64,000 nt of DNA from Novakomyces olei (lineage: Eukaryota), in the NCBI GenBank assembly GCA_016906335.1, contig JADEYG010000003.1, positions 992,001-1,056,000 on the forward strand, in the 5' to 3' direction. The number at the start of each line of letters is the position of its first letter. The stretch's first letter is position 1. Below, piece by piece: positions 9,494 to 62,730 of this stretch. The notes under the pieces were generated by a model, which saw only the letters and a program-made list of their open reading frames with translations, was not told the DNA's origin and ran no database searches. The translations under genes and the position numbers were made by a program.

Positions 9494-9848
<355 letters not shown>

Positions 9849-9889
9849 CGCAATCTGTCACATGGCATAAGAGCCGTCGCATTGCCAGC

Positions 9890-12122: not shown

Positions 12123-13871
12123 CTATCCAAACAAATCCTGTGCCTTTCTCTTCTTTTTCAGATCGCTGCTCCAAAGAAAAAAATCACAGCGGTACTCGCG
12201 ATTAACTTGACCCTTTTCGCGAGTCCTGTTATCGTATCCTGGTCCAACTGGCCTCGAGCAGATCCAAAAATTACGGCCATTATTGGGCCCAGGTTTCCGT
12301 GTTGTTAGTTCTATACATTCTTCATTATGTACAAAGCACCGAGGCTTTTCTTTTTGCTGAGAGGCAAAAAAACCTTCCCATTGACTGCTGCCTTCCAGCG
12401 ATGCCATTCTTGCGCTTTCAAGCACGTCCTTGTCAATTTCCAAAGAGTCTTTTTTGTTATTGCCCGTTTCTTTTTCCGTTAAACAAGGCACTTTTGTCTC
12501 TGCCGGCAAGGAGCAATCCGCAACCGGATTCTTTGAGAAAAAGGATGCAAGTGTTCGTTGCCTTGGATCAGCTGTACTTTTCAAGCTGATTGGTTTAGCT
12601 TTTGCCTTGCCAATAACACGGCCTCCTCTGACTGGAGAAGTTGGCGTCTGCTGTACTTTTATCTTGTCTTTTTCCCCAGTCTCTGCACTATTACCATCTC
12701 TAAATATCCTTTTCTCTTCTATTGCAAGGGAAGCCGGCTTTTCCATTCGCATAAACATAGAGCGAATATTTCCACGGGTGCTGTACTCTTCAAAGTAGCG
12801 AGCTGCTCGAGGCGGAGGAGGCGGCAAGTCCCGGCGTCGTTCTCCCGAGACAAAGCAGCCTGGAGGGTTAATCCTGTCTGCTAAAAACTGACCTTGACTA
12901 TTGCGGTCTTTCAAGTCAAGGTACACAGGACAATGATCTGAGCCGTATACTTCGGCCATAATATCGCTCGACTGGGCCCAATCGCGGAAGAACGGTAATG
13001 TACATAGGCAATAGTCGATCCTTGAGCCATAATTTCCCGGCCGAGCATTGATTTTTGTGTTCCAGCAGGTATACATCCCGAGTCGGCGAGGGTGGAAGGT
13101 ACGAGTACAGTCGACAAGGACCCGCCCATGTTCCGGTTCATGTACAAAATCTGCCTGCCGCTGTCCTTGTTCCGATCCGTGCTTTTGTTCTTTTGCTTGC
13201 TCTTTTTGTACCAACTCTTTTTGCTTCAATTCTATCCCATTTCTCTCTTGCCCCGCCTTCTCCACGTGCACAGTGGGCAGTAGTAGCCTGTCCAACCACT
13301 GCCGATGGGGGTAACTCTTGAAATTGCCATCAGGCGAGGCACGTATAGACTCTTGAGGCTCTGCTGTATCAATAGCATCCCTGCACACATTAATATCGCC
13401 AACAACAACAACCTGCCGGCCAGAGGCAGTGAGGTCACGGACTCTAGTACTGAGAGCATCTAAAAAGGCAAGCCGGTACTGCTCTCGCTCGGGGACAGTT
13501 ACGGCTGGGCAGTAAGTACCGATGAAATAAAATAGACCAAAGTCTAAGCAAACGGCACGGCCTTCTTCGTCCGAACCATCGGCACCAGAAATCCCAAACT
13601 CTGCGCGCACAGGAGAGCAAACGTCTCGGCGAACGTAAACAGCGACACCGGAATAGCCTTTTCGCGATTGTGGAAAGGTGAAAAACGCTTCAAATCCGGG
13701 GACATGAACAAGATCATCGCTCAAATCTTTGCGCTGTATTTTGATCTCTTGCAGGCAAATAATGTCGGCCTTGAGAGCATCAAAAATAGTGGCATACGAT
13801 TTTGTTTCGTTCCAGGGCGCATAATTGAACGGGTTACGTATCCCGTTGACGTTCCACGTCACTATGCGCAT
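12123..13871 (-). CDS. APN2: ExoIII-family AP endonuclease with PIP box and GRF zinc finger
   Basis: MRIVTWNVNGIR, GYSGV, GDIN, GSRIDY, GSDHCPV, QRTLASFF, GPNNGRNFWIC. The true ATG is at 13871. Confidence 0.95.
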   Translation of the reverse strand: MRIVTWNVNGIRNPFNYAPWNETKSYATIFDALKADIICLQEIKIQRKDLSDDLVHVPGFEAFFTFPQSRKGYSGVAVYVRRDVCSPVRAEFGISGADGSDEEGRAVCLDFGLFYFIGTYCPAVTVPEREQYRLAFLDALSTRVRDLTASGRQVVVVGDINVCRDAIDTAEPQESIRASPDGNFKSYPHRQWLDRLLLPTVHVEKAGQERNGIELKQKELVQKEQAKEQKHGSEQGQRQADFVHEPEHGRVLVDCTRTFHPRRLGMYTCWNTKINARPGNYGSRIDYCLCTLPFFRDWAQSSDIMAEVYGSDHCPVYLDLKDRNSQGQFLADRINPPGCFVSGERRRDLPPPPPRAARYFEEYSTRGNIRSMFMRMEKPASLAIEEKRIFRDGNSAETGEKDKIKVQQTPTSPVRGGRVIGKAKAKPISLKSTADPRQRTLASFFSKNPVADCSLPAETKVPCLTEKETGNNKKDSLEIDKDVLESARMASLEGSSQWEGFFASQQKEKPRCFVHNEECIELTTRKPGPNNGRNFWICSRPVGPGYDNRTREKGQVNREYRCDFFLWSSDLKKKRKAQDLFG

Positions 13872-13902
13872 CAGTCGCGAGCATAGTCCCGTTGCCAAAC
13901 AA

Positions 13903-14126
<224 letters not shown>

Positions 14127-14185
14127 TATTAAAATCGTTATTTCTCTAATATTGGTTTAGCCAACGGCACTGATCTCGCGCAGCC

Positions 14186-29473: not shown

Positions 29474-30492
29474 AGCACGCGCATATATTAATCCATTTTA
29501 TGCCGTTATCTCTCCAATAGCGAATATCAATACTGATTGATATATCAACTTTGTCGACCGACTGAGCTTTATAAATATTTACAGAGGTAGTAAGAATTAT
29601 TATTTCTGTATGTTGTAGAAACAGCGCGGCGACTCAATTTAAGTGGTAATACTAGCTGCACGACTATGTTTCACTTGGTTGCGAAGCACACTTGTCTCAG
29701 CGTATGAGAACATCTAAGAATGAAGTGTATAACCTTGTGCATTGAAAGTGTACGAAAATGGAGTGTTTGACCGTATGTATATACTCAAACCTAATGTAAA
29801 CAAACTGCCTGAACAACACTTTTAAACAGCTTTTTATTAATGAGCTTGACCTCGACGAATAGTATACATATTCAAACGTTCATCTACTCACAACGAACCA
29901 AGCTCCAACGAACCTTCATCGACGCCGCTCCCCGATCTGTATACGCGAGGACCCCGCGTAAATATTATTATCATCGTGACAAGTAACGCTGGCCACCGGT
30001 ATACATATTATGTACACAATTCACAAAAGATACGTAATATTACTTGTACGGTGTGAATAATGTAGTAATTATACTCCGCTTTTCAAGTAATGCTTACTTA
30101 TCACTTGTGTCATCATGTCAGTGAGACAAGACATTGCTTATCGTAATCTATTTACGCACGTCAGCACGTCTATGTTCACACTATATTTGTTAGTTAATAT
30201 ATTGCACGTGCACTTTTACCCGACCTACGCCAAGTCTCGTAGGCGTTTCGTACGGCACCCTTACCGTTCGCTAACACGCGAGCTTGCAATCTGAACTCGT
30301 AATCTTCCAAGACTCATAAAGGCTCTGTTTGACTCAACCAAACTCTGGGAGTCTGGAGTTTCAACTGGTTTATTACACAGTTTCCACTTCAATCAGTCAT
30401 TCCTGACTTTGATATATTTACCGCGCCGGTCGTGGTGACAAATTAAAACAGCTTCTATTCACTCCCCGTCGACTGGTCTTGCCGATTGTTTT

Positions 30493-32613
30493 ATGGTAGA
30501 GACGCAATCGTCTACCAAACACTCTCGCCGCTGCGGTACCCGACTCTTGTCTTTAGCCGATCAATGTGAACAGCTCGCCGAGCCCGCGTTCGCTAAGCCT
30601 CTAGTCCATCGCCCGGTCGATCAAGACTACAGCGAACAGTTTCTGCAGTCAGCCTGGTCCCCACTTGTCTCCAAGTACCTGCACTCTCTGTCCCTGCTGC
30701 TTTTGTGGGTCTACATCGCTGCGGCCCCTACTTGCGCCGCTGCCTCCAACTCTCACTCTGCTCATGCTGGCACGCAGTCTCACCAGAATGCCCACGGCCA
30801 CCATAAACCAGTGTCCGTTTACGTTTGGGAATGGATCGCTGTCCTTTTGCTCGTCTGTGTCTCGGGCGTTTCTGCGGGACTCACTCTCGGGCTTATGAGC
30901 CTCGACGAAACACAGCTGTACGTACTTTCCCAGTCTGGTTCCACCCAGCAGAGAAGGTGGGCTGAAAAGATTATGCCGATTAGGAGAAAGGGCCATTTGC
31001 TACTCGTTTCGCTCCTGCTGCTAAACGTCGTTGTGAATGAATCACTGCCTATTATATCGGAAGACGCGCTGGGCAGTGGCGTCTTTTCCATCGTTGTTTC
31101 CACCATTTTAATCGTCATTTTTAGTGAAATATTGCCACAAGCAATCTGCTCCCGTCACGGGTTGGCTGTTGGCGCAGCCCTGGCTGTTCCCGTCCAGCTG
31201 ATAATCTGGATCGAGTTTATCGTTGCTTACCCTATTGCCCGGCTACTAGACTGGATGCTGGGCCAGCATCATGGTATTATCTACCGTCGAGCTGAGCTGA
31301 AGGAACTCATCCGCTTTCATGCCCAGCAACAGCATCATGGCGGAGACTTGAACGTCGATGCTGTCACCATTATGAGAGGCGCTCTTGACCTTCAGGAAAA
31401 GGTAGTCAGGGATGCAATGACGGATATCGATAAGGCTTTTTGTCTGCCAATTGACTGCCGACTGGACCGGACTACTGTGCAGCGTATAGTTGATTCTGGA
31501 CATTCAAGGATACCTGTTTACGAGGGCACTTTGAATAATGCACAGGACAACGTTGGAGAAGGAAGTGAAGGACAAACAAAAGGAAGTGAGGCAGTTGAAG
31601 GCAATCAAACATTATCATACAAGATTATAGGCTGCCTTTTGACAAAAAGCCTTATTCTTATCGACCCGGACGATGCTCTGCCCCTAAGGGATATAGCAAT
31701 TATCCGTATGCCCTATGTTCAAGACAATCTGCCTCTGTTCGATATACTCAATTCCTTCCAGGAAGGCAACTCGCACATGGCGATCGTTGTGCCTTCGCCT
31801 CCACGTGCCGGTGAAGGTGGCAGTGGGCCAGATAATGGAAGCGATGGCCATCCTGAAAGCTCAAGATCATCATTTGATGACGTCACACAGCCTATGCTTG
31901 CAGGTGGGCAGCAGGTACCGCTTTTCCCGCTGTGGTCAGAGGCTGATATGGAGCAACTGCCGCCTATTGGCATAATAACTCTGGAAGACGTGCTGGAAGA
32001 GCTGATCCAGGAGCCCATCTGGGACGAGTCTGACGTGCAAGAATCGCTGAATAATGCAAGACGGCCTCGAGCTGGGCTAGCTGTTCCCTTGGAGACTGGT
32101 GAGCGGCTTATTTTGGCAACAGACCGGTTTCGTCAGCAAGTTGTAGCTGCACCAAAGGCAGTTCGATCCAAGTCGAACATTGCAAAAGCCGTGGAAGGCA
32201 AAAATGAAGATGCAAGTACAGTGGGGCCCTTAAAGCCAAATTCGCCGACGACTGATGCGATAAGAGAAAAGGAGGATTATTTGGCAATTGATAAGAAACG
32301 TAACGAGGAAGCAGAGCGTTTAATGAAGAAATCTGAGTACCAAGCCAGTCCAGCAGAAACAGGCCAGGTCGAGGATTTTACGCATTATCCCCGCATTCAA
32401 CAGGTGTCTGGCCACAACTCACCCAAAAAGAGCTTGCCGAATCTGCCTGCTGATGCTATTCTGCCTGCTGATGCTATTCTGCCTGCTGATGCTATTCTAC
32501 CTTCTGGTCTCCGTTCAATATCGCCCAGACTTTCTATGGATCAGCAAAAACGCAGCCAATCACCTGCTACCAGGAACAGGTTCAAAAGTATTGCCCTCAA
32601 CTCGAAGCATTAG
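30493..32613 (+). CDS. MAM3: CNNM/DUF21-CBS metal (Mg/Mn) homeostasis protein
   Basis: GLTLGLMSLD, HLLLVSLLL, EILPQAIC.RHGL, SGHSRIPVY, FQEGNSHMAIV, GIITLEDVLEELI. Confidence 0.9.
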   Translation: MVETQSSTKHSRRCGTRLLSLADQCEQLAEPAFAKPLVHRPVDQDYSEQFLQSAWSPLVSKYLHSLSLLLLWVYIAAAPTCAAASNSHSAHAGTQSHQNAHGHHKPVSVYVWEWIAVLLLVCVSGVSAGLTLGLMSLDETQLYVLSQSGSTQQRRWAEKIMPIRRKGHLLLVSLLLLNVVVNESLPIISEDALGSGVFSIVVSTILIVIFSEILPQAICSRHGLAVGAALAVPVQLIIWIEFIVAYPIARLLDWMLGQHHGIIYRRAELKELIRFHAQQQHHGGDLNVDAVTIMRGALDLQEKVVRDAMTDIDKAFCLPIDCRLDRTTVQRIVDSGHSRIPVYEGTLNNAQDNVGEGSEGQTKGSEAVEGNQTLSYKIIGCLLTKSLILIDPDDALPLRDIAIIRMPYVQDNLPLFDILNSFQEGNSHMAIVVPSPPRAGEGGSGPDNGSDGHPESSRSSFDDVTQPMLAGGQQVPLFPLWSEADMEQLPPIGIITLEDVLEELIQEPIWDESDVQESLNNARRPRAGLAVPLETGERLILATDRFRQQVVAAPKAVRSKSNIAKAVEGKNEDASTVGPLKPNSPTTDAIREKEDYLAIDKKRNEEAERLMKKSEYQASPAETGQVEDFTHYPRIQQVSGHNSPKKSLPNLPADAILPADAILPADAILPSGLRSISPRLSMDQQKRSQSPATRNRFKSIALNSKH
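32443..32500 (+). repeat. 18-bp coding repeat (LPADAI)x3
   Basis: ctgcctgctgatgctatt x3. Confidence 0.9.
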
Positions 32614-36423: not shown

Positions 36424-37322
36424 ATGAACAGGGGTACTTACCTTGAACGCTCATGGCGCGGCTTTAAAGAGCTTTGCGCAGTTGGTACGGATGGAAAGAT
36501 GTATCGCGATAATTAACCCAAGGCTTGAGGCAAAGAGGCCCGGCAGAGCTGCGCAGGGATCTGGTAATGTGCGATTTTTCCCGTGGACACGACGTGGACC
36601 AATTAGCATCTGGATGCGATCGCGACATTTGGGACTCGAGCACGAGCACCGTCAAGGTCGAATACAGCCCGGAGGAAGATGCTGCCCGCTTCCACGGCCG
36701 AATGGGCGCTGGAGGGTACGTGGCCTGGCGTACTCAACAGCCTCTGCCTCATATGTTTGGAGTGCCCAGCTATAACCTTTCTATGCTCAACTATATACAG
36801 TTACGGTAGGATGGAATTGCGCGCTACTTTTTTTAAAATTACATTCTTTTCTGCTTTTTTCTTTTTCCGTACTAGCTTCACTTTTTCGCTCATTTTAAAC
36901 GTACAGACTGAAAGCGATGACGCAACGCAAATTCTACCTAAACATCCAGGCCGACAGTACTGTGCCCACGGATATATACCAGCATCGCGTGTTTCTCACC
37001 ACCCCAGGGCAGTGGGAGACGGTTACTGTAGGTGCCGTGCGTCCAATTGTGGTCTAATTGCAGGTACCTCTGTCAGACTTTGTGCAAACGAACCACGGGC
37101 AAATCGTGCGTGAGCAGGCTCTTATGAACCGCAGCAAAGTACGAACGATCGGCATGTCTATCTTGGATCGGCAGCCAGGGCCGTATGATGTATATATCCG
37201 GGATATTATTGTACGCTGTTTGACTGACTTGTTGCTAATAATTCAAGGCTACTAACAATGCGGGCGACAAGGCGGCCGAGGCTGATAGCGCGGCTGTAGC
37301 AGAGGATGAAAAGCCACAATAG
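36424..37322 (+). CDS. CIA30: Complex I assembly factor CIA30/NDUFAF1, multi-exon
   Basis: SGCDRDI, GYVAWRT, KFYLNIQAD..TDIYQHR, VPLSDFVQTNHG, KVRTIGMS. Confidence 0.85.
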
Positions 37323-40845: not shown

Positions 40846-41938
40846 TTATTTTCCGGTTGCCGGAAGCACACTCGAAATTGGCGCCTTTGGTCGAAACAGG
40901 GCGACGGCGATATTCCGCCAAACGCCGAGGGAAAAAGGTCTCTTGTACCGGGCGCCCGTCGACTGCCGTAACTGTACGCGTCAAACAAATATGCACAGAG
41001 CAGGGCTTACGTATTCCGCAGTAGTCTGCCCTCGGCATATAAGAAAGCAGTGGTACGCAAGCAAGTAGGCCACGGGGAGGAGAAACGTGAAAAACAAGCA
41101 AGCCGTTACGATCCCAGCAGCAAACTGGTAGAGGGAGCCCTTATGCCTGTGCGTGTACAATACGCACTGGGCAACGGAAAGACCAATAATAAAACAGCCA
41201 TCTGCCACAGCAAAAGCAAGGCAGGTTATAAAGTAAGAATAGTTTCTTTTGCCAATGCAGGTGTTCATGTACCGGCAATGGTGGTCCGACCGCTCAACGC
41301 ACCTGTCGCACAAACGGCAATGGCTGCTGCGTGGAGGTCTCCACACGTGGCACGTCGTACAGTACCGCACATTAACAGTGTCGACCCCGCGGACGGACTT
41401 TACCGCTACAGGCCGCGCGGGGCTAACGAGCATATCTACACTCGAAACTTTGTGGAGGCCGCGCGGGATTGTCTGGCATTAGCATATGAATGTCTGCAAT
41501 TGTGCTTTGATTTGTATACTGTTTCCAGTCTTGGCTGGCTTTAATTATGATTATTGCCATTGCTATTATGATCAATTGTTTTATATTTATTTATTTATTT
41601 ATATTTATTTATTTATTTATTTTTATTTTATTTTATTTTTTGTTTGTTGTTGTTTGTTGATTTATTTATTTTTATTTTTATTTTTGAAACCTTTTTCATG
41701 TTCAACTCTTTCCTACCCCAGGATCAGTGAGCCATGCTTTTGCAAACGCGACAATGACGACGGCGGTGAGGTAGGCCTCCACTACAGGCACCGCGGGCGA
41801 AATATGGTGCCATATAAAGTAGTAACTTGTATCAGTAACAATGCTTCCCGTAACTTACGCTAAACCTATACGCAAACCAGCAAGAGCGAACAGAAGTGCC
41901 AACGTACACACCAGCGGCAGTGCTCTACATTCTAACAT
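40846..41938 (-). CDS. ERF2: DHHC palmitoyltransferase, Erf2-like, short N-terminus, 3 introns
   Basis: WHHISPAVP..TDPG, YCTTCHVWRPPRSSHCRLCDRCV..DHHC, CIGKRNY, GQTTAEY. Confidence 0.8.
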
Positions 41939-42197: not shown

Positions 42198-42716
42198 TTA
42201 CAGAAGCTTGCGCTTCTTCAATTTTTGGATATCCGCCTCTGAAGTATATCTTTGTCTCATTGTGCTAAACCAATTGCGCAGTTGGGTCCTTGTAAGACCG
42301 GAGAGGCGCAATAGAGCCTCTTTTTCAGCAGGAGTCGGAAAGCACAAAGGAAAATTTGCCACGAAGTACTCTTCGAGCGGTCGGAAATTAGATTTGCGTT
42401 TTTTCTTCAGCATTTCGTTTCTTGTAATAATACCAGAACAGTCTTCCGATAAGCTCATAACGGAGCTCTTCAATGTCTTCGCCAGTCCATGAATTCGAGC
42501 AGTGGTTGAAGAATCGACAGCTTCGTTGCTTTGGTTAAATATTTCAAAACAGGACAGCAAATTGGCATTCAGCTTATGAATCTCTTCAACCGTTAAGGGG
42601 TTCGAATTGTAAGAGCAATTCAGCACATTGACTGCATTTACCATTGAATTAGTTAGTATGTCCGAAACGGCCATATAATCCGAATGAAATGATAGGCAAC
42701 TTGAACTCGAATTCAT
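42198..42716 (-). CDS. Mating-type homeodomain protein, MATalpha2/matPi-like (TALE-type)
   Basis: LEEYFVANFPLCFPTPAEKEALLRLSGLTRTQLRNWFSTMRQR; 172 aa, intronless; near SLA2. Confidence 0.75.
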   Translation of the reverse strand: MNSSSSCLSFHSDYMAVSDILTNSMVNAVNVLNCSYNSNPLTVEEIHKLNANLLSCFEIFNQSNEAVDSSTTARIHGLAKTLKSSVMSLSEDCSGIITRNEMLKKKRKSNFRPLEEYFVANFPLCFPTPAEKEALLRLSGLTRTQLRNWFSTMRQRYTSEADIQKLKKRKLL

Positions 42717-42892
42717 GAGAGAGCAGAAAGTTACTGACTTCGAACACAGAGCGATGTTCGCCGCTCAAGATAACTCTTTGTTTATGGCGTCGCGTAATTA
42801 TAATTTAAATATAATAATAGATATGGTATGACGATAGTAATATAAACCAATACGAACACGTAAGGAACATATTTGCTATCGATATTAGATGA

Positions 42893-45089
42893 ATGATGTC
42901 GATTAGCTGCAGTAGTCCTGAAAAGATTCAGGCTTTCTGCTCCGAGGTAGATGATACTTCGATTGAAGCGGATAAAATGCTAACAAAGTCGGCAAGGATG
43001 GCCTGAGAGCTCTTTCTTCGCGCGTTAAGCAAGCATTGACGGTAATCAAAGTAAGCTCTTCAAAATTTGGCCTACTACTAATTTTGTTCCCAGGAGCTAT
43101 CAGTCTATTTAAGGAAAAATGCTACGCTACGCGATCAGTATTCAAAAGGTATGCAGAAGCACTGTTATATTGGCAGCACTTAAAATAAAATTGTGTAGAT
43201 TTGTCAAAAGCATGCCGTTCTATGAAAGATGGACTTTCGAAGCTAGACTCTTCTCACAGGTAATTATCCTTTCTGCGTTTAAGCATACAATGCCTAACAT
43301 ATTTAATTGAAGTGGAACTGTTGAGTTTATCTCAATACTCCCGAACATGAATGAGATGAGGTCAGAGACTTTCCTACTTATGGCAAACAAGCTGTCTGAT
43401 ATGTCCGAGGAAATATCAGATGAAATTAAGCGGCTTGATCGTGTACGGAAGGTTACTAAGGACGCCGCTATGGCTGACGAAAAAGCACTTACTAATGCCA
43501 AACAAGAATTTGAGAAGGTAAATGTGACAGGAAATTTGATAAATTAATACTTTTGTAGGCAAAGAGCCGCCATCATGCTCTTGAATCTGAATATGAGAAA
43601 TTTAGAGGAATGCAAAATGATCATCAAAAGAAGTCTTTTTCGTTTCGTCAAAAATCAGAGCAACAGGTAATCTATCATACGGCTTGTCAAAGGTATTGAC
43701 TGTCAAATAGATTGCACGACAAGAAGAGGAGCTTAGGCTTAAAGTAGCCGAAGCTCTAAGAGAAATGAAATTGAAAGAATCGGAATTTGAACACAAAGAA
43801 AGGGAGCTTGAGCTTCACGCCAGACCGAAATATGCGGAAGTACGTATAATGTCTACGCTATTTCTTCAACTACTAACATGCAAAGACGTTATTGCAGTTA
43901 CTAGAAGAAGTGAGCCTATACACTCATGCTCAAGTTGAGAAAACGAGTAAGGCATTTGTTGTTACCATACCATATCTAATGAATGATAGGATATCTCGAC
44001 GAGGAATTCATTGTTAGTCTAGGGCTCTCCTGTCAATTAAGTAACTGAGAAATTTGATGGAATCCAACTTTTACTAATCTCTCCAGAAAACAACGGATCA
44101 GCTCTTGCATCGCTATCAAAATTTATTGATTCCTGGACGAAAAGCAAACCGAAACAAACACCAGTTTTGAGTGCAAATGATCGAATAGTGGTAATTTATC
44201 ACAGAATAAATTTAGAGTTTCTAACAACAATAAAGGAACCCTCCGAGGACAACTCGCACAAGAACAAATTATTTGGTGTGAGCTTAGGAGAAATGTTTCA
44301 AGAAAACGGTGCTGCTTCATTTACCACAGTGTTTCAACTAATGGACTGTGTCGAAAAATATGGTATAATTAAACGATGAAATATCGGAAAATCATACTAA
44401 AGCCCCTTTTAGGATCTCATTTGGAAGGCATTTATCGTCTTTCTGGATCGTCGGGCACGATTATTAAATTGAAGCAGAGCCTTGAAGATGGTATAAAATT
44501 TTCTTCATCTGAAATTGTGTGCTGAACATCATTTAGACAGTAATGCTCTGCTCAATCGGCCCGAAGAGGCCGAGAAAGATGTTGTTTCTGTATCTGCGCT
44601 TCTCAAGCAATATTTTCGCGAACTGCCAGACCCTTTGATTCCTGATGAGTTTGCTACCTCATTCGTTTCAGCGGCACAAAGAGGCGGACGTGAGAGCCGT
44701 GACGCGTAAGGCAAAGTTCAATATTCGTTATGCTTACGGACTAGAATACATCGTGCTGTAAATAATCTCCCAGATCCAAACTACGTCATGCTCCGGCGTT
44801 TAATCATTCATCTTTTCCGGTATGATTTGTGTTCTTTTTCGGGACTGAAGAGGCTAATTATACACAGGATTTCTGAGGAGCGCGCTTTTAACAAAATGAA
44901 CGCAAGTAATTTGTCCATTATATGGGGGCCTGCGATTATGTCTTCCGAAGGTAAACTCTTTTTTTTCTTGGCTGCGAATAGTAATTATTAATTGTAGCAT
45001 CGGCCTCAATGGCGGATTTAGGGTGGCACTGCAAAGCTATTGAGATTCTCGTAGAGAACTGCTATTCAATCTTCGATGCAGACTCATAG
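42893..45089 (+). CDS. F-BAR + RhoGAP protein (Rgd1/Rga7-like), ~15 short introns
   Basis: F-BAR LSSRVKQAL..KEK, EFEKAKSRH, EEELRLKV; RhoGAP LFGVSL, EGIYRLSG, LLKQYFRELPDPL, LPDPNYVMLR, NKMNASNLSIIWGP. Confidence 0.88.
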
Positions 45090-45231
45090 ATTTCTCTGTG
45101 ACTTCCAACATAATAATTAATAACCATCAATTAGCAATGTAGCATTACTTATAATAGAAGCAAGTAATATCACGCTGCCGTTTTGGCAATTCTCAAAAAT
45201 AGACGGCTGGTATGCTAAATTGTTGCTAGAC

Positions 45232-45702
45232 ATGAAAGGTAGATTCAGAATTAAGCAAGCCAAGCAACACCTTGACGCAAATGACGCAAAGAAAAGTGCG
45301 GAGATAAGCCGTTATAATCCTTTATTTGTTGTGTTTCCATTGGAAGCAAAATACAAGTCCGTTGTGAATGGCAAAGGTGTGGACGAAGAGATCATATCAC
45401 AATGCGCCCAAGAGTCGAGGCTTTCGTCTTCAAGGAAGATCAGCAAACCATATCTAAAAACCGCCGGCTCCAAGAAAAACAAAAACACAGCTTTATTTTC
45501 ATACAGAATGGGTGGTTTCATTCAGTTTAGGACTCATGTCTCGAATGAAATTAAGAAGCGAGGTCTTAAGGTTGCCCAGCGGAAGCTTTCCTCCGAACTG
45601 TCGAAAATTTGGAAAGAAATGGATTATGATAAAAAGCTGCAATGGAAATCAACGGCAGATGTGGAACACTTTATAGAAACTTACACTCAAAAGTTACCAT
45701 GA
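45232..45702 (+). CDS. Mating-type alpha-box/HMG protein, MATalpha1/matPc-like
   Basis: GGFIQFR...QRKLSSELSKIWKEM..KKLQWK alpha-box/HMG pattern; N-terminal FRIK like alpha1 proteins. Confidence 0.72.
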   Translation: MKGRFRIKQAKQHLDANDAKKSAEISRYNPLFVVFPLEAKYKSVVNGKGVDEEIISQCAQESRLSSSRKISKPYLKTAGSKKNKNTALFSYRMGGFIQFRTHVSNEIKKRGLKVAQRKLSSELSKIWKEMDYDKKLQWKSTADVEHFIETYTQKLP

Positions 45703-45748: not shown

Positions 45749-47733
45749 CTATATATGTTTGGACATTGGAGCTATGACACCCAGATCTTTCTCATCCACC
45801 AACCCGAGCTTCATTATATCACCCCAGAAAAGCATGACTCTCTGCTCGGCGTACAGCAAGTAATCAAACTCGGTTTCATTGGCCTCTTCGATTTCGACCC
45901 ATTCGTCTTGCACCGGCTGCGGAACATTGTTACGATTAATACCCCACAGACTCCAGAAAGCATGACTTGCTGGTCGCCACGCAGTGACAGCTTCAGCAAA
46001 TTTGTCGGATGGAAAGGAAAACTTTGTTTCGCTGTCGATTCCCCATTCAGAATAAGCTTCAATGAAACGCAGTTGCTCAGCGTATGAGGGGTACGCGGTT
46101 TCGTGGAGCACATGTGAGTCCGGCCGGCCATAGTCCGCCATCCATTCACACTAGACAACGATTAGAGGTGATACAGGCAGAATTTTACAAACATGAAATA
46201 AAATATTAGACAAAGTTAGATTTAGAAATAAAATAATTTAATTTAATTTAAGATTAAATTAAATTGCGATGTTAATCGAGTAGAAAATAAGCCGATAATG
46301 TAGCAAGCTAAAATTGACAAATAAAAGCAAACAAGGTAGCTTACAAAATGGTTGGCCACGTCGTAAAAGCGCGGATTTGGCCCGGCGTACTCAAAATCGA
46401 TCGGCGTGAGGCACGTGTTATCGCGTCCCTGCATTTTAACAATATTCCCGTATTGAATCTGGGCATTTAGCAAATATAGACTAATAATAAGTCATACGTC
46501 ATTATGGCAAAAAGCCATGCTTTGCCGCACGTCTCCGTACTCCGTCTTCTCCAGCCACAGCCTGTACCGTTCAACGTACTTTGTAAAAAAATCAAACATA
46601 TCCGTTGAGATACAAGAATGACTACGGTTGAAGGCAGTAGTAAGTCGCCGAGCCAAAGGCAGCCAGTCAAACCACAATTGCCATACAACAGGAAGCGAGT
46701 TCCGTTCAGATTCATTTAAAACGACCGCATCGTGAAATTCGCGCATACGCTGAGCAATCTGGTTGCTTATATCGGGCGACCGCATTTCTTTTGGACTCAG
46801 AGCTGCACAGTCCAGCCACTGCTCGAATCTGCCATTGGCAAAAGTCCCAATTACTCGGGGACCGATCCCGTGTTTGCCCAGCCTCCGCAAGTTCACGGCC
46901 TCTTTCGTACGATCGATCAAAAGGTCTGAAGTCGGACCGAATACTCGGAGTAGCAATCGTCGCCTATGGGGTTTGCTTCGTGAGGGACAACTGTCTCCAA
47001 TCGTTTCGATGGGAGCCATAATGAAATAGACAGAGTTTGTTAGCGCACCAGATAGCCTTTGCACAAAGACATCGGAGGCCGCAGCAATAGGGATATGGCG
47101 CCATGGCGAAATGCACAGTTTGTGTAAGAGGCGTAGCAGTGAGGCTTTAAATTCCTCGCATCTGCTGAAAAGTTAGTGACTACAAGTTGGCGAAAAAGCC
47201 GGTGGCCGATCAAACAAGGGCAGAGAGAAATGTGGATGGTTAAAGTGCAAAAATAAGCAGATACAAAGAGTCGAGTATATAGCTAAATCGACGGAGTAAA
47301 TAACACTGTGCATTTCAAAATTACAGACATTGAAGTAGCACAAAAGAGACGCGTATAGTAACGAGGCAACAAACAGTCGTGAGACATAAATGGTCTATTG
47401 TAATTGGTATTTCAGTCGCAAAAGCTGAGATAAGATCAAACAGGGCTAAATTTAAAAGACAGTTTAGAACAGTAAGAAAGGAACGAAAGCGAGGAAGCAA
47501 AAGCAAAGACGCAAAGCAAAGAAACGAAGCAAAGATACAAAACAAGGAGATAAAGAAAAGGCACTTTTGACATACTTGTCGTCCAGAATATAATCGCAAT
47601 GAGGTACAAAGTACTCTTGGTCGCCAATCAATGTAAGGCCGTCAACATAGCTAGTCACTGGCTGTCTGCCGGCGTGCGATCTTTGGCCTGGTAACGTGGG
47701 CCGAATCAATGGCGATTTTCGAGGATTGTTCAT
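45749..47733 (-). CDS. CKI1: Choline/ethanolamine kinase, multi-exon (first intron ~414 nt)
   Basis: RLSGALTNSVY, LLLRVFG, FANGRFEQW, FCHND|AQYGNI, IDFEYAGPN, DVANHF, SHAFWSLWG. Confidence 0.9.
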
Positions 47734-48234: not shown

Positions 48235-49765
48235 TCAGGTACGAAAGTACATTGGACTCGATATATCAGCAGAGCCTGAGCCAGATTGGCTTTGACTCTG
48301 CCTTTCATAAAAGCTTTGTGAGTATACGGAATCGGAAAACGGTTCGTCAGGCATTAACGAGCGACCATTTTCACCATTATCAGTATGCTGCCTCATTAAA
48401 AAGTCGTCGCTGTGTGGCATATCAACGAGGCCATTATATCTTCTTATGGGTGAGGAAGAATATAGATCAGAATCTAAATTGGTCGAGGCACCACGGGAAT
48501 ATTGTTGTGATTGTGCGATATCATACGTCAGATTGTGGCTCTGCGATGGGTTAGGCTTGGCTCGCAATTTTAAGCCTGCGGCCTTATACTTGTCAGGAAA
48601 CGCATTTCGGAACCTGGCGGTCAGCTTAGATTGAAGAGAAAAAATATAAATTAATATTAATATTAATAATAATATTAATAATTAAAAAACAAAGTAAGTT
48701 CCAGAGACTGAATAGAAGGAATTTTAATATTGCATTTTGACTCAATACAGAAGCAGAAGAAGAAAAGAAATTTGAGCTTAAATTGCATGAAATTTTAATT
48801 CAAGGCTCGATGTAAAACAAAATAACGATCCGAAATCAATTAAATTTGAGATAATGTTGAGACTAAATCAATCAAAGAAAGCATACCTGTCCCGTATATC
48901 GGTGCTACGCCTCGTGGATAAGCCTAAACTTGCATCTTTGCGAATTTTAGACCAGCGTGGCCCATACTAGCAATTAGAATGATGTCTTATTTCTGACGAT
49001 AAAAGGCACAGCAGGAATAGAGGGAAAAGGAACAAAACGTAAACAAATTTACGTTAAAACCCCAAAGCTCGAGTACCTTTTGAAACCCTTCCAATAAACC
49101 AGCGTCTTCCTCCGAGGTAAACTCCTTCCGCGGTCTACGTTCGATCTGAGGCAAGATCAAATCGCTCTGAATACCGTAAGGCTTATTCAATTTAGCCTTT
49201 GCATTGGGATAAAACTGATTATAATCTTCTGATGAAATAGTCCGAAATCTAATATTAGCATTGGCAAGGCCGATAGTGGTGCGAACCTGTCTTTTAAATG
49301 TATAGCGCTCCGATCATTAAAGTTAAACCTTTGCCGCAGTTAGGACACGAGTCAAGCGTACGACGTTACCTCTGATCCTGCAATATTTTCTTCCAGTTTC
49401 CAACACCGTATATTTTACAGCCACGTAAAAGATCCTGCGTCTCCGAGTCTGTCCACATTGTGCGTGGCCGTTTCCGCGTATACTGAGGGCTGGTGCCTTT
49501 ATTGATTAACTATGATATTATGACCATCCGCCTACCTCGTTCAAGACCTGACGCGAAATCGCCTTGTAGTTGCGCGTCATTATCACCACCTTCCGCTGTG
49601 ACAAATCCTTTTGCCAAGCATTAGCATCAACAAAGGCCATCGTCTCTTACCTTGCGACACGTGCAGCGGGGAAGACGGCAGACTAAACTGGTGAAACCGG
49701 CCTTGTCCAGTATCTGGCTGCAGCTGATGCGCGTCTAATTTTGTGAACTGAGACTGCCGATCCAT
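48235..49765 (-). CDS. TAY1: Double-Myb telobox DNA-binding protein, Tay1/Teb1-like, multi-exon
   Basis: Myb1 RTMWTDSETQDLLRGCKIYGVGNWKKILQD..LKDRFRT; Myb2 RKEFTSEEDAGLLEGFQKYGPRWSKI..RRSTDIRDRFRNAFP. Confidence 0.82.
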
Positions 49766-49898
49766 ACTCGTGATTTGATACCCGTTTGAGGGTCAAAGGA
49801 GCCGTTTACAGTGTAGCAATCAGGCATCGGCATATCACGATCATGCTGGTACGCGCTGCTCAGTTTATATTCGCATATTAAATAGTTTATCAATTTAA

Positions 49899-50005
49899 TA
49901 AATTATTAAATTATTAAATTATTAAATTATTAAATTATTAAATTATTAAATTATTAAATTATTAAATTATTAAATTATTAAATTATTAAATTATTAATTA
50001 ATCAT

Positions 50006-50036
<31 letters not shown>

Positions 50037-51565: not shown

Positions 51566-54500
51566 CTACTCTTCAAAGCGGTACGATACTTTGCGCATAT
51601 CGCCCAGCTTTTTACGAGCATTACTAAGCTCCTGCTCGTATTTGAGAATGGCCACTTGCTGCTCCATCTCCCGCACTTTGAAATCGCTTGGGGCAAGGGC
51701 GGCATAGTCCACCTGTACCTCCTTTTTGCCGCTTTCTGCGTCCATTATTGCCTCGACCTGTTTCACGAGGGCACGGCAGGCAGCGGAGACTGCCTTGGAG
51801 GCATCCTCCAGCTGCTCCTGTACACGAGAGCCAAACGTCGTTTTGACACGAGAGGCGGCGACCAGTTGGGCGGTTGCCGAGGCAACGTTATTGGAAGCCA
51901 CAATCAAATGCTCCAGGCTCTTTGTGCCGTCGAGCACTTGGTCGGCTGTGTCGATGAGCACATTAGTGGCCGAGGCAACTGCCTTGGCAGCAGAGATAAG
52001 GCCCTGAGTCCACCGGCTGTTCTTCTTGTAGAACTCGGCCCTTGAAGCAGTGCCCCTGCCCTGAGCCACGATCTCTGCCTGTGTGTCGCTCGAGGCCTTT
52101 ACGAGCCGGGCTACTGCCTCCATAATGGCAGTGGCAGCGGACAGGATAGCCTCATTGACCTGCCTGTCCCGAGGCGCAGCACTCTGCGACCTGTCCTGCT
52201 CAAACATGGCCTTGAGCCGGTCAGTAGCGGCATTGATTGCCTTTGCAGCTTTGCCAAACTCGTCGTCGACAATCTCTTCAGCATCTCGCTTGTCTGCGCC
52301 CATTGCAGCGAGCGAACGAGACTGGTCTTGCTGCATAAACTGGTCGACGAGGGTGGAGAGCTGTTGCAGCACTGACTGAACGGCAATGTTCTTGTCAATC
52401 ACGAGTCCCTGCCGAGCTTCAACGTCGAGGTGTGCCACTTTGAAGGAGAGCAGACTGGAGAAAAAGTCCTGCGCCAGCTCGGCAGCCCGAGCAGCGAGCC
52501 GGACAGCCGGCTCGCCCTCGGCCTCGTCGATGTACTGCAGGACGCCCTTGACGTAGGCGAGCACATCGTCCACGCCGGAAGTGAAGGCACTGCTCGCTGT
52601 GATAATTGGAGCCAAAGGCACCTGCTGACCGCCTTCGCCGCCATCGCCATCGCCCTCGGACTCGGCAAAGTAGTCGTTGAAGGCAGTGGCAAAGTCAGTG
52701 GCCGCCACTGACGTCTTTTCTGTGCTCGACAGCAGCAGCTGCGGAGAGGCATGGTACTTGGCTCCCTCCACTGGCGTATCCAGCTGGAAGAGGGAGTCCT
52801 CAATACGCTGAATGGCCGTCTGGAGAACGGCATCAAGCAAGTCGAGCAGCTCGTCTTTGCCCGCTGCCGATGATTTGGTATTGTTTTGCTGAAGCGCATT
52901 CAGCTGCAGCAAAGACTCGTCCATTCCCGCCTTGTACACCTCCAACTCTCCGTCTTTTGCCTCTAATTCAGCCTGCAAATCTTTGCAGCGCTGCTGTAAT
53001 CGTGAATCAGAGTCCTGCAGAGTCTTTGTCTTGTTGCGTAGCGCCTCTTCCATATCCGCAATCTCTCTATTGCACCGAGAGAGAGCAAGAGACAGCTCAG
53101 CGTTCCGATCACGCAGCTCGTTGGCGTCTTTTTCAACGGCAAATTGAATGTCCCTCCGCTGCTTTTCCGCCTCGTTCTTGTGTGAAGCTTTCAGCCTGTC
53201 CAGATCGTGACGGGCACGGTCTCTCTCGCGGATCAAATCGGCCAGCTCAATGTTCTTGGCCTTCATGTCCCGCTCCATCCTCTCCCTCTTGTCGATCGAC
53301 TCCTGTGCAGACTGCGCCTTGAGCTGCATCTGCTTGAACTTGGACAGTTGGTCCAAGTGCTCCTGGCGCAGCTGAGTGTACAGCTTAGCCAGAGACTCGT
53401 ACTTGGACCTCCACATGGTTACTTGCTGCTGCAGCGAATCAATAAGCTGGTCCCGTGAGGATAACTGCTGCAGCGAGTTTTGCTGCAGCTGGCCAATCTC
53501 GTTCTCCAGCGCTTTCACCCTGTTGTCGTACTGCTCCAGCATCAGCTGGTCACGGTCGTACTGGCCCCGCATCGCCAGAATCTCGCGCTCAAGGTCCGCT
53601 AGTCTGCCCTGCGCTTGGTGCTGGTACTGGTCCCTCATCAGCTGATCCTGGGCCATTTGCTGTGCCAGCTCTTGCTGACGCTGCTGCTCTTGGAACTGCC
53701 GCTGCTGCTCTAACGCTTGTTGCCTCTGACGCTCCATCTCTTCCTGCTGCTGACGCTCTATCTCCCGCTGCTGCGCCAGCTGCTGCTGAGCAGCGTTCTG
53801 ATCGCTCCAGAAATCGTCCATCGACTCTGGCTCACTCGGCGTGGTGCTTCGCGGAGCGGCATTTCTGTTGACTCTTGCATCCGTGCCTGTCTGCGCCGGC
53901 CGCTGCGGCAGAGCCGGTGGCATCTCCTCACCTTCAATGTCCAAAATTGGTGGGTCTTGCGGAAGCTTTGGGATGGATATCAGGCTTGTCAGGTAGCGCA
54001 GCGTTGAGCACTCGTAGTAGAACTTGAGTAGCGCATGGTGCTGGGCAATGTACTTTGTTTTTAGCGGCTCAAGAATGTCTTCGCTCTCGACAGCTATTGC
54101 GTTAGATTCGTAAAGTAAGAGAAACACAATATATAAATATAAATTTAAATATAAATTTAAATTTAAATTTAAAAAAATTTATATATATATAATCTAGAAA
54201 TAATTGGAAATTATTGAAATAGACATGATCACAATAAACAGAAAAAGCCAAAGAATTAATGTTCAGCCTACTTGCAGAAAGTGCGCGCAAAAGGCCAGTG
54301 AGAAACTTGTAGATGCCATAGCTCTCGACTACAAGAGGCACAAGTGCAGAAATACGGCATTCGTTAGCTGATCCGGGCACAAATGTAGCAAAGATTAGTC
54401 GCTGGAAATCGTCAATCTCATCGAGCAATCCCTGCATCTCTGACGTCGTCTCGTAACTAACGATTAGACTCGGCTTTTCAACAAGGCAACCCTACCATTC

Positions 54501-55166
54501 GTCCGGGTTGTTAACGTTGCGCAGACTCGTATATTCGTCATAGTCAAAAGTACCTAGAGCGTAAGCAAGAGCAACATAGGCAGCAGCCTACCATTAAACT
54601 CTGGGTGATCACGATGGAAGTATATTTTGTGGATCAAATAAGTCGAGTATCGCTGAATTAGCTGACCGTATCCACGAGCAGTTTGCGTCTGAAATGCTCT
54701 ATTACAGCTTTCGAACCAGTTTACCTGGTTCTGGACGTCCACAAGACACACTTCGTGGCCTTCTTGCAGTACCTTATGCACCAATATGAGCGCTTTAAAA
54801 GTCTGCACTTCGTCCGTGAATATAGGCTGTACCTTCAGACTCGACCAGAATGGGATTGATGTTTGATGATCCCACGTATACACAATACAGCCTGTAAATA
54901 TTGCCTCGTTGCCAACTTGCACGGGTCTCTAAAAGCCCAAGCAAATTCACAAAAAGCGCGATTAGTGCTGAGGGCATTGCAAATGACTCACTTCGAACAT
55001 GCTTCCGCTTGGGCGCACTTTCCACGGGCGTTGTGGCCTTGCGAATACTCGTGATCAAATCGGCGTCCTTGTGATGGACATCCGACCGCATTGGCGGTGA
55101 GACCGCTGAGAAAGGCTGACTATACCTTTTGGAATTAGCAATTAATACACAGCGCCCGACTCACAT
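51566..55166 (-). CDS. SLA2: Endocytic adaptor Sla2/End4 (ANTH, coiled coil, I/LWEQ), multi-exon
   Basis: ESAPKRKHVR, FKALILVHKVLQEGH, CRISALVPLVVESYGIY, FYKKNSRWTQGLISAAKAVA, QLVAASRVK. Confidence 0.96.
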
Positions 55167-59679: not shown

Positions 59680-60702
<1,023 letters not shown>

Positions 60703-61610: not shown

Positions 61611-61949
61611 TCAAAATCCGTGGATTTTGATGTTACGCTTCGGGATCTGAAGCTGAGCGTGGAGGAACTCACTGACTTTGACACGTTGATCACCCTGGAG
61701 TTGCATCACATTTCCCAGCTCATTATCCGCAACAATAGTGCCGTTGCAAGCAAAATCCTTCTTCAGGACCTTTAGAACCTTCTTGGGGTCATACTCCTCC
61801 GGCAGACCTTGAACAGTAGTCAGCGTCTTGCGTCCGCTGCGCTGCTGAATACGAATATGGATGTAGCCCTTGGCTCCACTGTCGTCGTCGCCAGTATCAG
61901 CAAAGGGATCGACAGTCTTAAAGTTCTGGATCTGATCAACCTGCGACAT
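61611..61949 (-). CDS. SUI1: Translation initiation factor eIF1
   Basis: IHIRIQQRSGRKTLTTVQG, KKDFACNG, QLQGDQR, IKIHGF. Confidence 0.97.
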   Translation of the reverse strand: MSQVDQIQNFKTVDPFADTGDDDSGAKGYIHIRIQQRSGRKTLTTVQGLPEEYDPKKVLKVLKKDFACNGTIVADNELGNVMQLQGDQRVKVSEFLHAQLQIPKRNIKIHGF

Positions 61950-62730
61950 ACAATAGAGGGGCGTCTCGTAGACACGGATAACAGAGGAGGTTGGAAGGGC
62001 GTAAAGAGAGTTGAGTTTTTGAGAGAAAAAGTCTGTGCGGCTTTGTAAGTTTAAAGGCTGAAAGAGTTGAAAAACCGTGAATGCAGGTAAGAGACAGGTA
62101 TCTGCTAAAAACGCCTCTCTTGATCAGCTCTAAAGTTGTGGTGTGGGTTTCTTTGAGAAGAGCGTATGCGGTACACGGACCCGTCGAACAAAATAATATA
62201 TGGGCGGAAAAGGGAGGAAAATTTACGCTTTAATTTTGCACCATAATTATTGGAGGGAACAAAGGTCAAGAAGGGTTTACAAGGGTTATATTACATTCGC
62301 GATAGCTGTAATACTACTGCAATCTTACTTGTTGGTTTGTCAGGCGCGTGATGGACTAAATTTATGGATCGTGGTATTGGGACGTTGAGAATTAAAAGTA
62401 ATGTTGGTGCACGTCATCTACGTTGCAAAAGCGGCCACAGCAGCCAATTAGCACGGCGGCTAATAGCTTTTATTGTACATAATTTGGAGACGTCAGAGGC
62501 ACTATTGCATATTAATTAAATCATATCATACAAAGACACAAAGTCGTAGCATATAATCCTGGAAGCCGGCGCACGTTAAACGTTCAATCAGAGAGTATTT
62601 AACCGCAGCCACAATTAAGTCAAAACTTTAAAAACAAATAAAAGGTAAGGATGCAGTTTCCGATATGTACAGGATGCAGGTAGAAAAAGGAACAACAGAA
62701 ACGCAGACGTGTGTAACCTTAAAAGGCCAA

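Follow-up and report, generated by a model that had tools for sequence, protein, structure and literature searches.

A putative mating-type region of Novakomyces olei in which an rga7-like RhoGAP gene lies between a TALE homeodomain gene and a diverged HMG-like gene

When a gene for a likely regulator of the cytoskeleton lies between two candidate mating-type (MAT) genes, has it been recruited for mating, or has it simply been enclosed as an old neighbour? This question is raised by a stretch of DNA from Novakomyces olei (GenBank assembly GCA_016906335.1, contig JADEYG010000003.1, positions 992,001 to 1,056,000), which was analysed over its whole length of 64 kb (hereafter the window, to which all positions refer). 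The window is eukaryotic and intron-dense, with a GC content of 43.9%. It contains, one after the other, a TALE homeodomain (HD) gene on the reverse strand, and a RhoGAP gene and an HMG-like open reading frame (ORF) on the forward strand (Table 1). The original prediction had read these as a MAT locus in which an F-BAR/RhoGAP gene is enclosed between an HD gene and an alpha-box gene, and all three genes were found where it had placed them. The HD and RhoGAP genes are divergent, and 176 bp lie between their start codons (ATG at 42716 and 42893, respectively), which agrees with the divergent promoter region of about 175 bp that had been predicted. The stop codon of the RhoGAP gene is separated by 142 bp from the ATG of the HMG-like gene, whose own stop lies 46 bp from that of a convergent choline-kinase gene. 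The two putative MAT transcription-factor genes lie within 3.5 kb and directly flank the RhoGAP gene.

With modest confidence, we take this to be the MAT region of an intron-dense, Taphrinomycotina-looking ascomycete, located at the ancestral APN2/MAM3-SLA2 site together with rga7 and sui1, where rga7 is an ordinary neighbour. Two small, fast-evolving genes would define MAT, namely a TALE homeodomain gene of the Pi/alpha2 class and a highly diverged HMG-box gene. The RhoGAP gene would be an ordinary rga7 orthologue and an old MAT neighbour, and it would have come to lie between the two MAT genes through a small local rearrangement rather than through recruitment for a mating function.

We compared the HD ORF with the Pfam profiles and observed a match to Homeobox_KN at 31.9 bits (E 1.2e-7), which rose to 33 bits when the C-terminal 110 amino acids (aa) were used. 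Both values exceed the curated cut-off of 24 bits, so the homeodomain assignment of the original prediction stands. In the PDB, 37 distinct sequences matched at E <= 1; the TALE homeodomains of PBX1/Extradenticle came first (E 6.9e-6), and MATalpha2 of Saccharomyces cerevisiae was matched at E 0.005. The alignment with PBX1 is ungapped, 52 residues to 52, across the loop between helix 1 and helix 2, and hence the three-residue TALE loop extension is present. The profile match above the cut-off and this loop extension identify a TALE homeodomain gene, and the small protein, the C-terminal position of the homeodomain and the MAT-syntenic site are those of the Pi/alpha2 class. The matPi proteins also carry their homeodomain at the C-terminal end (Almeida et al. 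2015, PMC4313921). A word-indexed protein search for relatives of the HD protein gave 64 candidates, none of which scored.

The HMG-like ORF gave a weaker signal. Pfam HMG_box was matched at 17.6 bits (E 0.005) by the whole ORF and at 19 bits (E 0.002) by residues 80-156. This alignment, of 48 residues with profile positions 7-54, has no gaps, and 14 further residues follow it before the end of the protein. The alpha-box profile, MATalpha_HMGbox, was matched neither by the whole ORF nor by residues 80-156, whether the limit was set at E <= 1 or at E <= 10, although a very weak alpha-box match would go unlisted, since most matches above about E 0.1 are removed by the HMMER filters. The right-hand gene had been predicted to be an alpha-box gene; the profiles do not bear this out and give just the sub-threshold HMG_box match (17.6-19 bits against a cut-off of 25.4 bits). 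A phmmer search of 1.84 billion representative proteins, a library that should include MATA_HMG proteins, returned four matches at E <= 1e-3. The only small protein among them, P0004 (251 aa, E 9.2e-4), carries two tandem Pfam HMG boxes. The three others are giant proteins of 4574-5731 aa, which we set aside as probable low-complexity matches, and no fungal MAT HMG protein was found among the matches to these representatives. The word-indexed protein search gave 50 candidates, none of which scored. The nearest clusters of the protein atlas were HMG_box clusters (0.89 and 0.87), which we treat as leads only. These three weak sources, Pfam, the phmmer match P0004 and the atlas, suggest that the gene belongs to the HMG superfamily in a loose sense.

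Both putative MAT proteins are thus without detectable relatives in the searches made, and we read this as the fast evolution typical of MAT genes. In a crude six-frame motif scan of the 64-kb window, no further HMG or HD gene was seen beside these two, in line with the prediction that the window holds no second MAT gene of the opposite type. A search of Rfam gave no match.

What makes the locus recognisable is its neighbourhood. From Pfam searches with the larger stop-to-stop ORFs of the window, we observed that this single stretch of 64 kb joins the MAT markers of Pezizomycotina and Saccharomycotina (APN2, MAM3 and SLA2) with those of Taphrinomycotina (rga7 and SUI1); genes for SHQ1 and RPS9 were also found. 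In budding yeasts, Lipomyces among them, SLA2, APN2 and MAM3 are described as the ancestral surroundings of MAT (Krassowski et al. 2019, PMC6692504), and in filamentous ascomycetes MAT usually has SLA2 and APN2 beside it (PMC3778014). On the other side, rga7 lies beside MAT in Schizosaccharomyces and Taphrina deformans (Almeida et al. 2015, PMC4313921), and sui1, rga7 and cox10 have been used as MAT-associated markers in Protomyces (Wang et al. 2019, bioRxiv 10.1101/594028). The presence of APN2, MAM3, SLA2 and SUI1 in the window therefore puts the genes at the ancestral ascomycete MAT site, beside the Taphrinomycotina markers rga7 and sui1. The distances from the MAT candidates are about 28 kb for APN2 and about 6 kb for SLA2, with unrelated genes in between.

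Could the HD and HMG-like ORFs nevertheless be spurious, or be ordinary genes that flank rga7 by chance, with the true MAT genes elsewhere? The sub-threshold HMG assignment and the lack of detectable homologues of either ORF are compatible with this. It would be a striking coincidence, however, to find a small gene with a C-terminal TALE domain and an HMG-like ORF around rga7, between APN2/MAM3 and SLA2 and with SUI1 near, and we consider this explanation highly improbable. Because both marker sets surround the small TALE homeodomain gene and the HMG-like gene, a MAT locus is by far the best reading. The predicted MAT locus is very probably one, given the small C-terminal TALE gene and the APN2, MAM3, SLA2 and SUI1 genes around it; the alpha-box identity of its right-hand gene is not supported.

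Table 1. Positions of the mating-type candidates, the RhoGAP gene and the neighbouring genes in the window
Feature	Position	Strand	Properties
TALE homeodomain gene, Pi/alpha2-class MAT candidate	42198-42716	-	172 aa; homeodomain at residues ~105-160; Pfam, PDB
HD-RhoGAP divergent intergenic region	42717-42892		176 bp
rga7/RGD1-like RhoGAP gene	42893-45089	+	16 exons, 1506 nt, 501 aa; manual splice model
RhoGAP exons 1-8	42893-42946, 42997-43050, 43094-43148, 43199-43259, 43313-43517, 43559-43666, 43711-43839, 43886-43946		
RhoGAP exons 9-16	43990-44040, 44087-44190, 44236-44362, 44413-44490, 44537-44705, 44745-44819, 44868-44950, 44998-45089		
Diverged HMG-box-like gene, Pc- or Mc-class MAT candidate	45232-45702	+	156 aa; domain at residues ~90-150
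APN2-like gene	12123-14114	-	Pfam Exo_endo_phos E 1.1e-22; GRF zinc finger E 4e-6
MAM3-like CNNM gene	30439-32613	+	Pfam CNNM E 4.1e-30
DHHC palmitoyltransferase exon, left neighbour of HD gene	40981-41478	-	Pfam DHHC E 1.6e-31
Choline/ethanolamine kinase gene, right neighbour	45749-47172	-	Pfam Choline_kinase E 7.8e-32 and 4.7e-11, two exons
SLA2 gene	51566-54928	-	Pfam I_LWEQ E 1.9e-53; ANTH E 1.5e-25 and 6.7e-11 on upstream exons
SUI1 (eIF1) gene	61611-62123	-	Pfam SUI1 E 5.4e-26

The gene between the two MAT candidates was modelled manually, since two automatic splice models were wrong and one retained in-frame introns. The resulting frame is open, without an internal stop, and the protein would be 516 aa long if the in-frame intron at 44191-44235 were retained. 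We counted about 15 introns of 39-53 bp, many of them with CTAAC-like branch sites. Matches to Pfam RhoGAP fall on three exons and are collinear with the profile (profile positions 18-39, 38-86 and 118-146), the latter two at 38.9 and 26.8 bits, above the cut-off of 24.5 bits. One exon matches seven solved RhoGAP domains in the PDB at E <= 0.01, and the translated model contains the arginine-finger motif GIYRLSG. Together with the catalytic arginine finger, these above-threshold matches identify a member of the RhoGAP family. The N-terminal half, of about eight short exons, reads like FCH/F-BAR in its translation, and this domain is putative; the largest exon of the region, taken alone, gave no FCH match in Pfam and no PDB match below E 0.6. 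A word-indexed search of a RhoGAP exon against longer proteins gave 44 candidates, none of which scored. Of the predicted F-BAR/RhoGAP gene between HD and alpha-box genes, the RhoGAP domain and the position were recovered, and the alpha-box label of the gene to its right was not supported.

To which class of HMG-like mating factor could the right-hand gene belong? We put the chances of a Pc-like (plus-type) gene at about even; an Mc-like gene is less probable but well within reach, and a gene like neither is improbable. As the gene may be of either the Pc or the Mc class, the locus could be plus-type or fused homothallic. The extreme divergence of the ORF, with its sub-threshold HMG_box match and no relative found among the 1.84 billion representatives, argues for Pc. 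The orientation points the same way, as the HD and HMG-like genes are divergent if rga7 is ignored; in Schizosaccharomyces pombe, Pc and Pi form a divergent pair. In addition, a divergent Mi-like ORF would not fit beside the HMG-like gene, because only 142 bp separate it from the rga7 stop and 46 bp from the kinase stop. In Protomyces, plus-type strains have matPi and matPc. Martin et al. (2010, PMC2999568) describe S. pombe Pc as not firmly classable as alpha1 or HMG, and this uncertainty parallels the weak, relative-less HMG match seen here. According to the same paper, helices 1 and 3 are shorter in alpha1 domains than in the HMG box, and a fourth helix is added at the C-terminal end. The ungapped HMG_box alignment and the 14-residue tail argue against such a helix pattern in our ORF, for which the structure model is of low confidence (mean pLDDT, the predicted local distance difference test score, 48.7).

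If the gene were Mc-like, the locus could be, as the original prediction had allowed for, a fused, primary-homothallic one, in which the HD gene is matPi, the HMG-like gene is matMc, and rga7 lies between the plus and minus parts of one haploid genome. The ungapped match to HMG_box positions 7-54, followed by the end of the protein 14 residues later, fits a plain HMG box better than alpha1. In both Pneumocystis and T. deformans, matMc, matMi and matPi are present and matPc is lacking, and in T. deformans rga7 adjoins matMc and matMi (Almeida et al. 2015, PMC4313921). The window is also in keeping with a fused locus in showing neither a second HMG or HD gene nor cassette-like repeats. However, the HMG domain is still recognisable in published matMc proteins, whose overall identity to S. 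pombe is about 27% (PMC4313921), whereas the ORF described here stays below the threshold. The exhaustive phmmer search gave no fungal MAT HMG protein, and a divergent matMi could not be accommodated beside the HMG-like gene. Taken together, we regard a fused locus as unlikely, although it deserves serious consideration.

The repeat content of the window is relevant to mating-type switching as well. Within the 64 kb, the MAT candidates are not flanked by cassette-type or inverted repeats, so that the arrangement expected of switching cassettes is absent from the window. The repeats present are AT-rich simple repeats and (ATT)n runs only, and silent copies may lie beyond the window. Two (ATT)n/(AAT)n microsatellites of about 240-360 bp, at 9495-9853 and 13892-14133, stand in inverted orientation and bracket a Sec2-like gene together with APN2. 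At 49887-50034, between a Myb-like ORF and a SET-domain gene, TTATTAAA is repeated in tandem 18.6 times.

A further explanation assigns rga7 itself a role in mating. The locus would then be a heterothallic plus-type idiomorph that has captured rga7, with mating-type-specific alleles of the gene, co-regulation with the HD gene through the 176-bp promoter, and a function in polarity or cell fusion. The gene is indeed physically enclosed and has the 176-bp divergent region in common with the HD gene. Inside this region, at 42774-42783 on the forward strand, we found the decamer CTCTTTGTTT, an HMG/Ste11-type site that agrees with the S. pombe Ste11 TR box at 9 of 10 bases; it is a lead only. The GC content at third codon positions (GC3) of the HD, rga7 and HMG-like genes (0.40-0.45) is lower than that of their immediate neighbours, the DHHC gene (0.61) and the kinase gene (0.50-0.53). 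However, the 8-mer core of the TR box, TCTTTGTT, occurs at chance frequency, with four copies in the window, one of them in the HD-rga7 region, against 4.0 expected. Outside the block, GC3 is equally low in APN2 (0.41) and in the SET-domain gene (0.39), and for this reason the low GC3 of the three genes says little. The S. pombe rga7 gene lies outside the mating-type cassette, which also counts against capture. In the available text of PMC4313921, rga7 is described just as a MAT neighbour. We therefore consider a captured, mating-specific rga7 quite improbable. Among the flanking genes, the coding sequence of SLA2 (51566-54178, reverse strand) has a GC3 of 0.67, well above the GC content of the window (0.44) and the GC3 of the MAT block (0.40-0.45).

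Several of these observations also weigh against the reading that we favour, of a MAT region with rga7 as an ordinary neighbour. The HMG_box scores of the HMG-like ORF are below the curated cut-off of 25.4 bits, its PDB search gave two matches (E 0.39 and 1.2), neither of them an HMG protein, and its single-sequence AlphaFold model was unusable at the pLDDT given above. Both the ungapped, canonical HMG_box match (48 residues to 48 profile positions) and the T. deformans arrangement, with matMc and matMi next to rga7 (PMC4313921), speak for Mc. The chance frequency of the TR-box core and the GC3 values shared with APN2 and the SET-domain gene belong here too. The orthology of the RhoGAP gene to rga7 is likewise probable rather than certain, being drawn from synteny (MAT and sui1) and domain content. 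MAT function, expression and mating-type-specific presence of the HD and HMG-like genes are putative, as judged from sequence, and so are the P or M type, the rearrangement and any suppression of recombination; the genes themselves, with their domains, spacing and synteny, were directly observed.

How does this locus compare with known systems? We observed the closest likeness with mat1 of S. pombe and the MAT locus of T. deformans (PMC4313921), where rga7 is likewise the immediate neighbour of MAT with sui1 near, and where small HD and HMG factors are found, the homeodomain of the Pi class being C-terminal. The original prediction that rga7 lies beside mat1 in S. pombe and that the linkage is ancient was right; since it has been published for Schizosaccharomyces and T. 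deformans (PMC4313921), this linkage is known and not new. Unlike in those species, where it lies beside the MAT genes, rga7 here lies between them. In contrast to S. pombe mat1, the 64 kb show neither H1/H2-type repeats nor silent cassettes. APN2, MAM3 and SLA2 are linked to the locus here, whereas we found no such linkage reported for S. pombe or T. deformans in the texts available to us.

The position of the MAT candidates between APN2/MAM3 and SLA2 is, on the other hand, shared with Pezizomycotina and with early-branching Saccharomycotina, such as Lipomyces with its order SLA2/MAM3...MAT...APN2/MLH3 (PMC6692504). The present locus differs from that context in the distances and the unrelated genes noted above, and also in its MAT genes, which are of the Taphrinomycotina kind (a Pi-like HD gene and a degenerate HMG gene), with no clear alpha1 or a1/a2. 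The fused MAT locus of Pneumocystis (matMc, matMi and matPi; primary homothallism) resembles it in having HD and HMG genes within a few kb, but the HMG gene here is far more diverged and no matMi candidate can be placed. Enclosure of other genes has a precedent in the MTL locus of Candida albicans, which encloses PAP, OBP and PIK, genes whose alleles have diverged between its two idiomorphs. The likeness lies in a housekeeping gene physically placed between mating-type transcription-factor genes, and the difference is that two idiomorphs are known there, whereas one haplotype is at hand here.

In the literature searches made, we found no published report in which rga7/sui1 and SLA2/APN2 are linked at one MAT locus, although supplementary gene-order figures or tables may bear on this. 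Two features thus look new: rga7 between two MAT genes, and the rga7/sui1 and APN2/SLA2 contexts at one locus. A more far-reaching possibility is that the locus is a missing link, in the sense that the mat1 neighbourhood (rga7 and sui1) and APN2-MAT-SLA2 are one ancestral site, and that rga7 was swallowed here into a recombination-suppressed region and has mating-type-specific alleles. We find this unlikely.

The features of the window are those that look like a Taphrinomycotina-like fungus, to judge from the many short introns and from RPS9, whose best PDB chain is 9axt_AM (256 bits, with the next at 242 bits), presumably a chain from S. pombe. The published N. olei genome has a GC content of 43.8% and 5.7 exons per gene, values which the GC content (43.9%) and numerous short introns of the window resemble, and its authors reported no homologues of matPc, matPi, matMc or matMi. 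In the Novakomyces literature available to us, MAT is dealt with just in the species description. We also retrieved 27 metagenome loci with SLA2 (identity 38-63%) and searched them by tblastn at E <= 1e-4. SLA2 was present in 27/27, APN2 in 3/27 and RPS9 in 1/27, and rga7, the HD and HMG-like genes and the other neighbours were in 0/27. Elsewhere in the window, an exon of a Ras-superfamily small GTPase (59984-60343, forward strand; Pfam Ras E 5.4e-30), Rac/Cdc42-like by eye, lies about 15 kb from the RhoGAP gene. Two ORFs between the synteny anchors, at 48235-48681 (reverse strand, 148 aa) and 36607-37113 (forward strand, 168 aa), match no Pfam family.

If the locus is a MAT region with an enclosed rga7, the division of labour could follow that of S. 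pombe. By this analogy, the HMG factor would drive pheromone and receptor genes that are specific to the mating type, and the role of the homeodomain factor would come after conjugation, in licensing entry into meiosis. The rga7 gene would keep its housekeeping role, its function probably unchanged. It is physically enclosed, and therefore would be dragged into any recombination-suppressed block that may exist around the MAT genes.

MAT loci serve as the chief model for the origin and expansion of sex-determining regions. If our reading is true and the window represents the MAT locus of the Novakomyces olei lineage, it would be the missing MAT locus of that genome. The HMG-like gene would add a further member to the Pc-type class, which is poorly understood and for which Martin et al. 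(2010, PMC2999568) called for additional sequences from Taphrinomycotina. A locus that joins rga7/sui1 with the APN2/SLA2 context would fix the ancestral MAT position for the whole ascomycete phylum. The value of the locus would rise sharply if rga7 lay in a non-recombining block or if the single ancestral site were confirmed. An essential-looking cytoskeletal regulator between MAT genes would be a natural test of whether enclosure alone drives allele divergence, with which the expansion of a sex-determining region begins.

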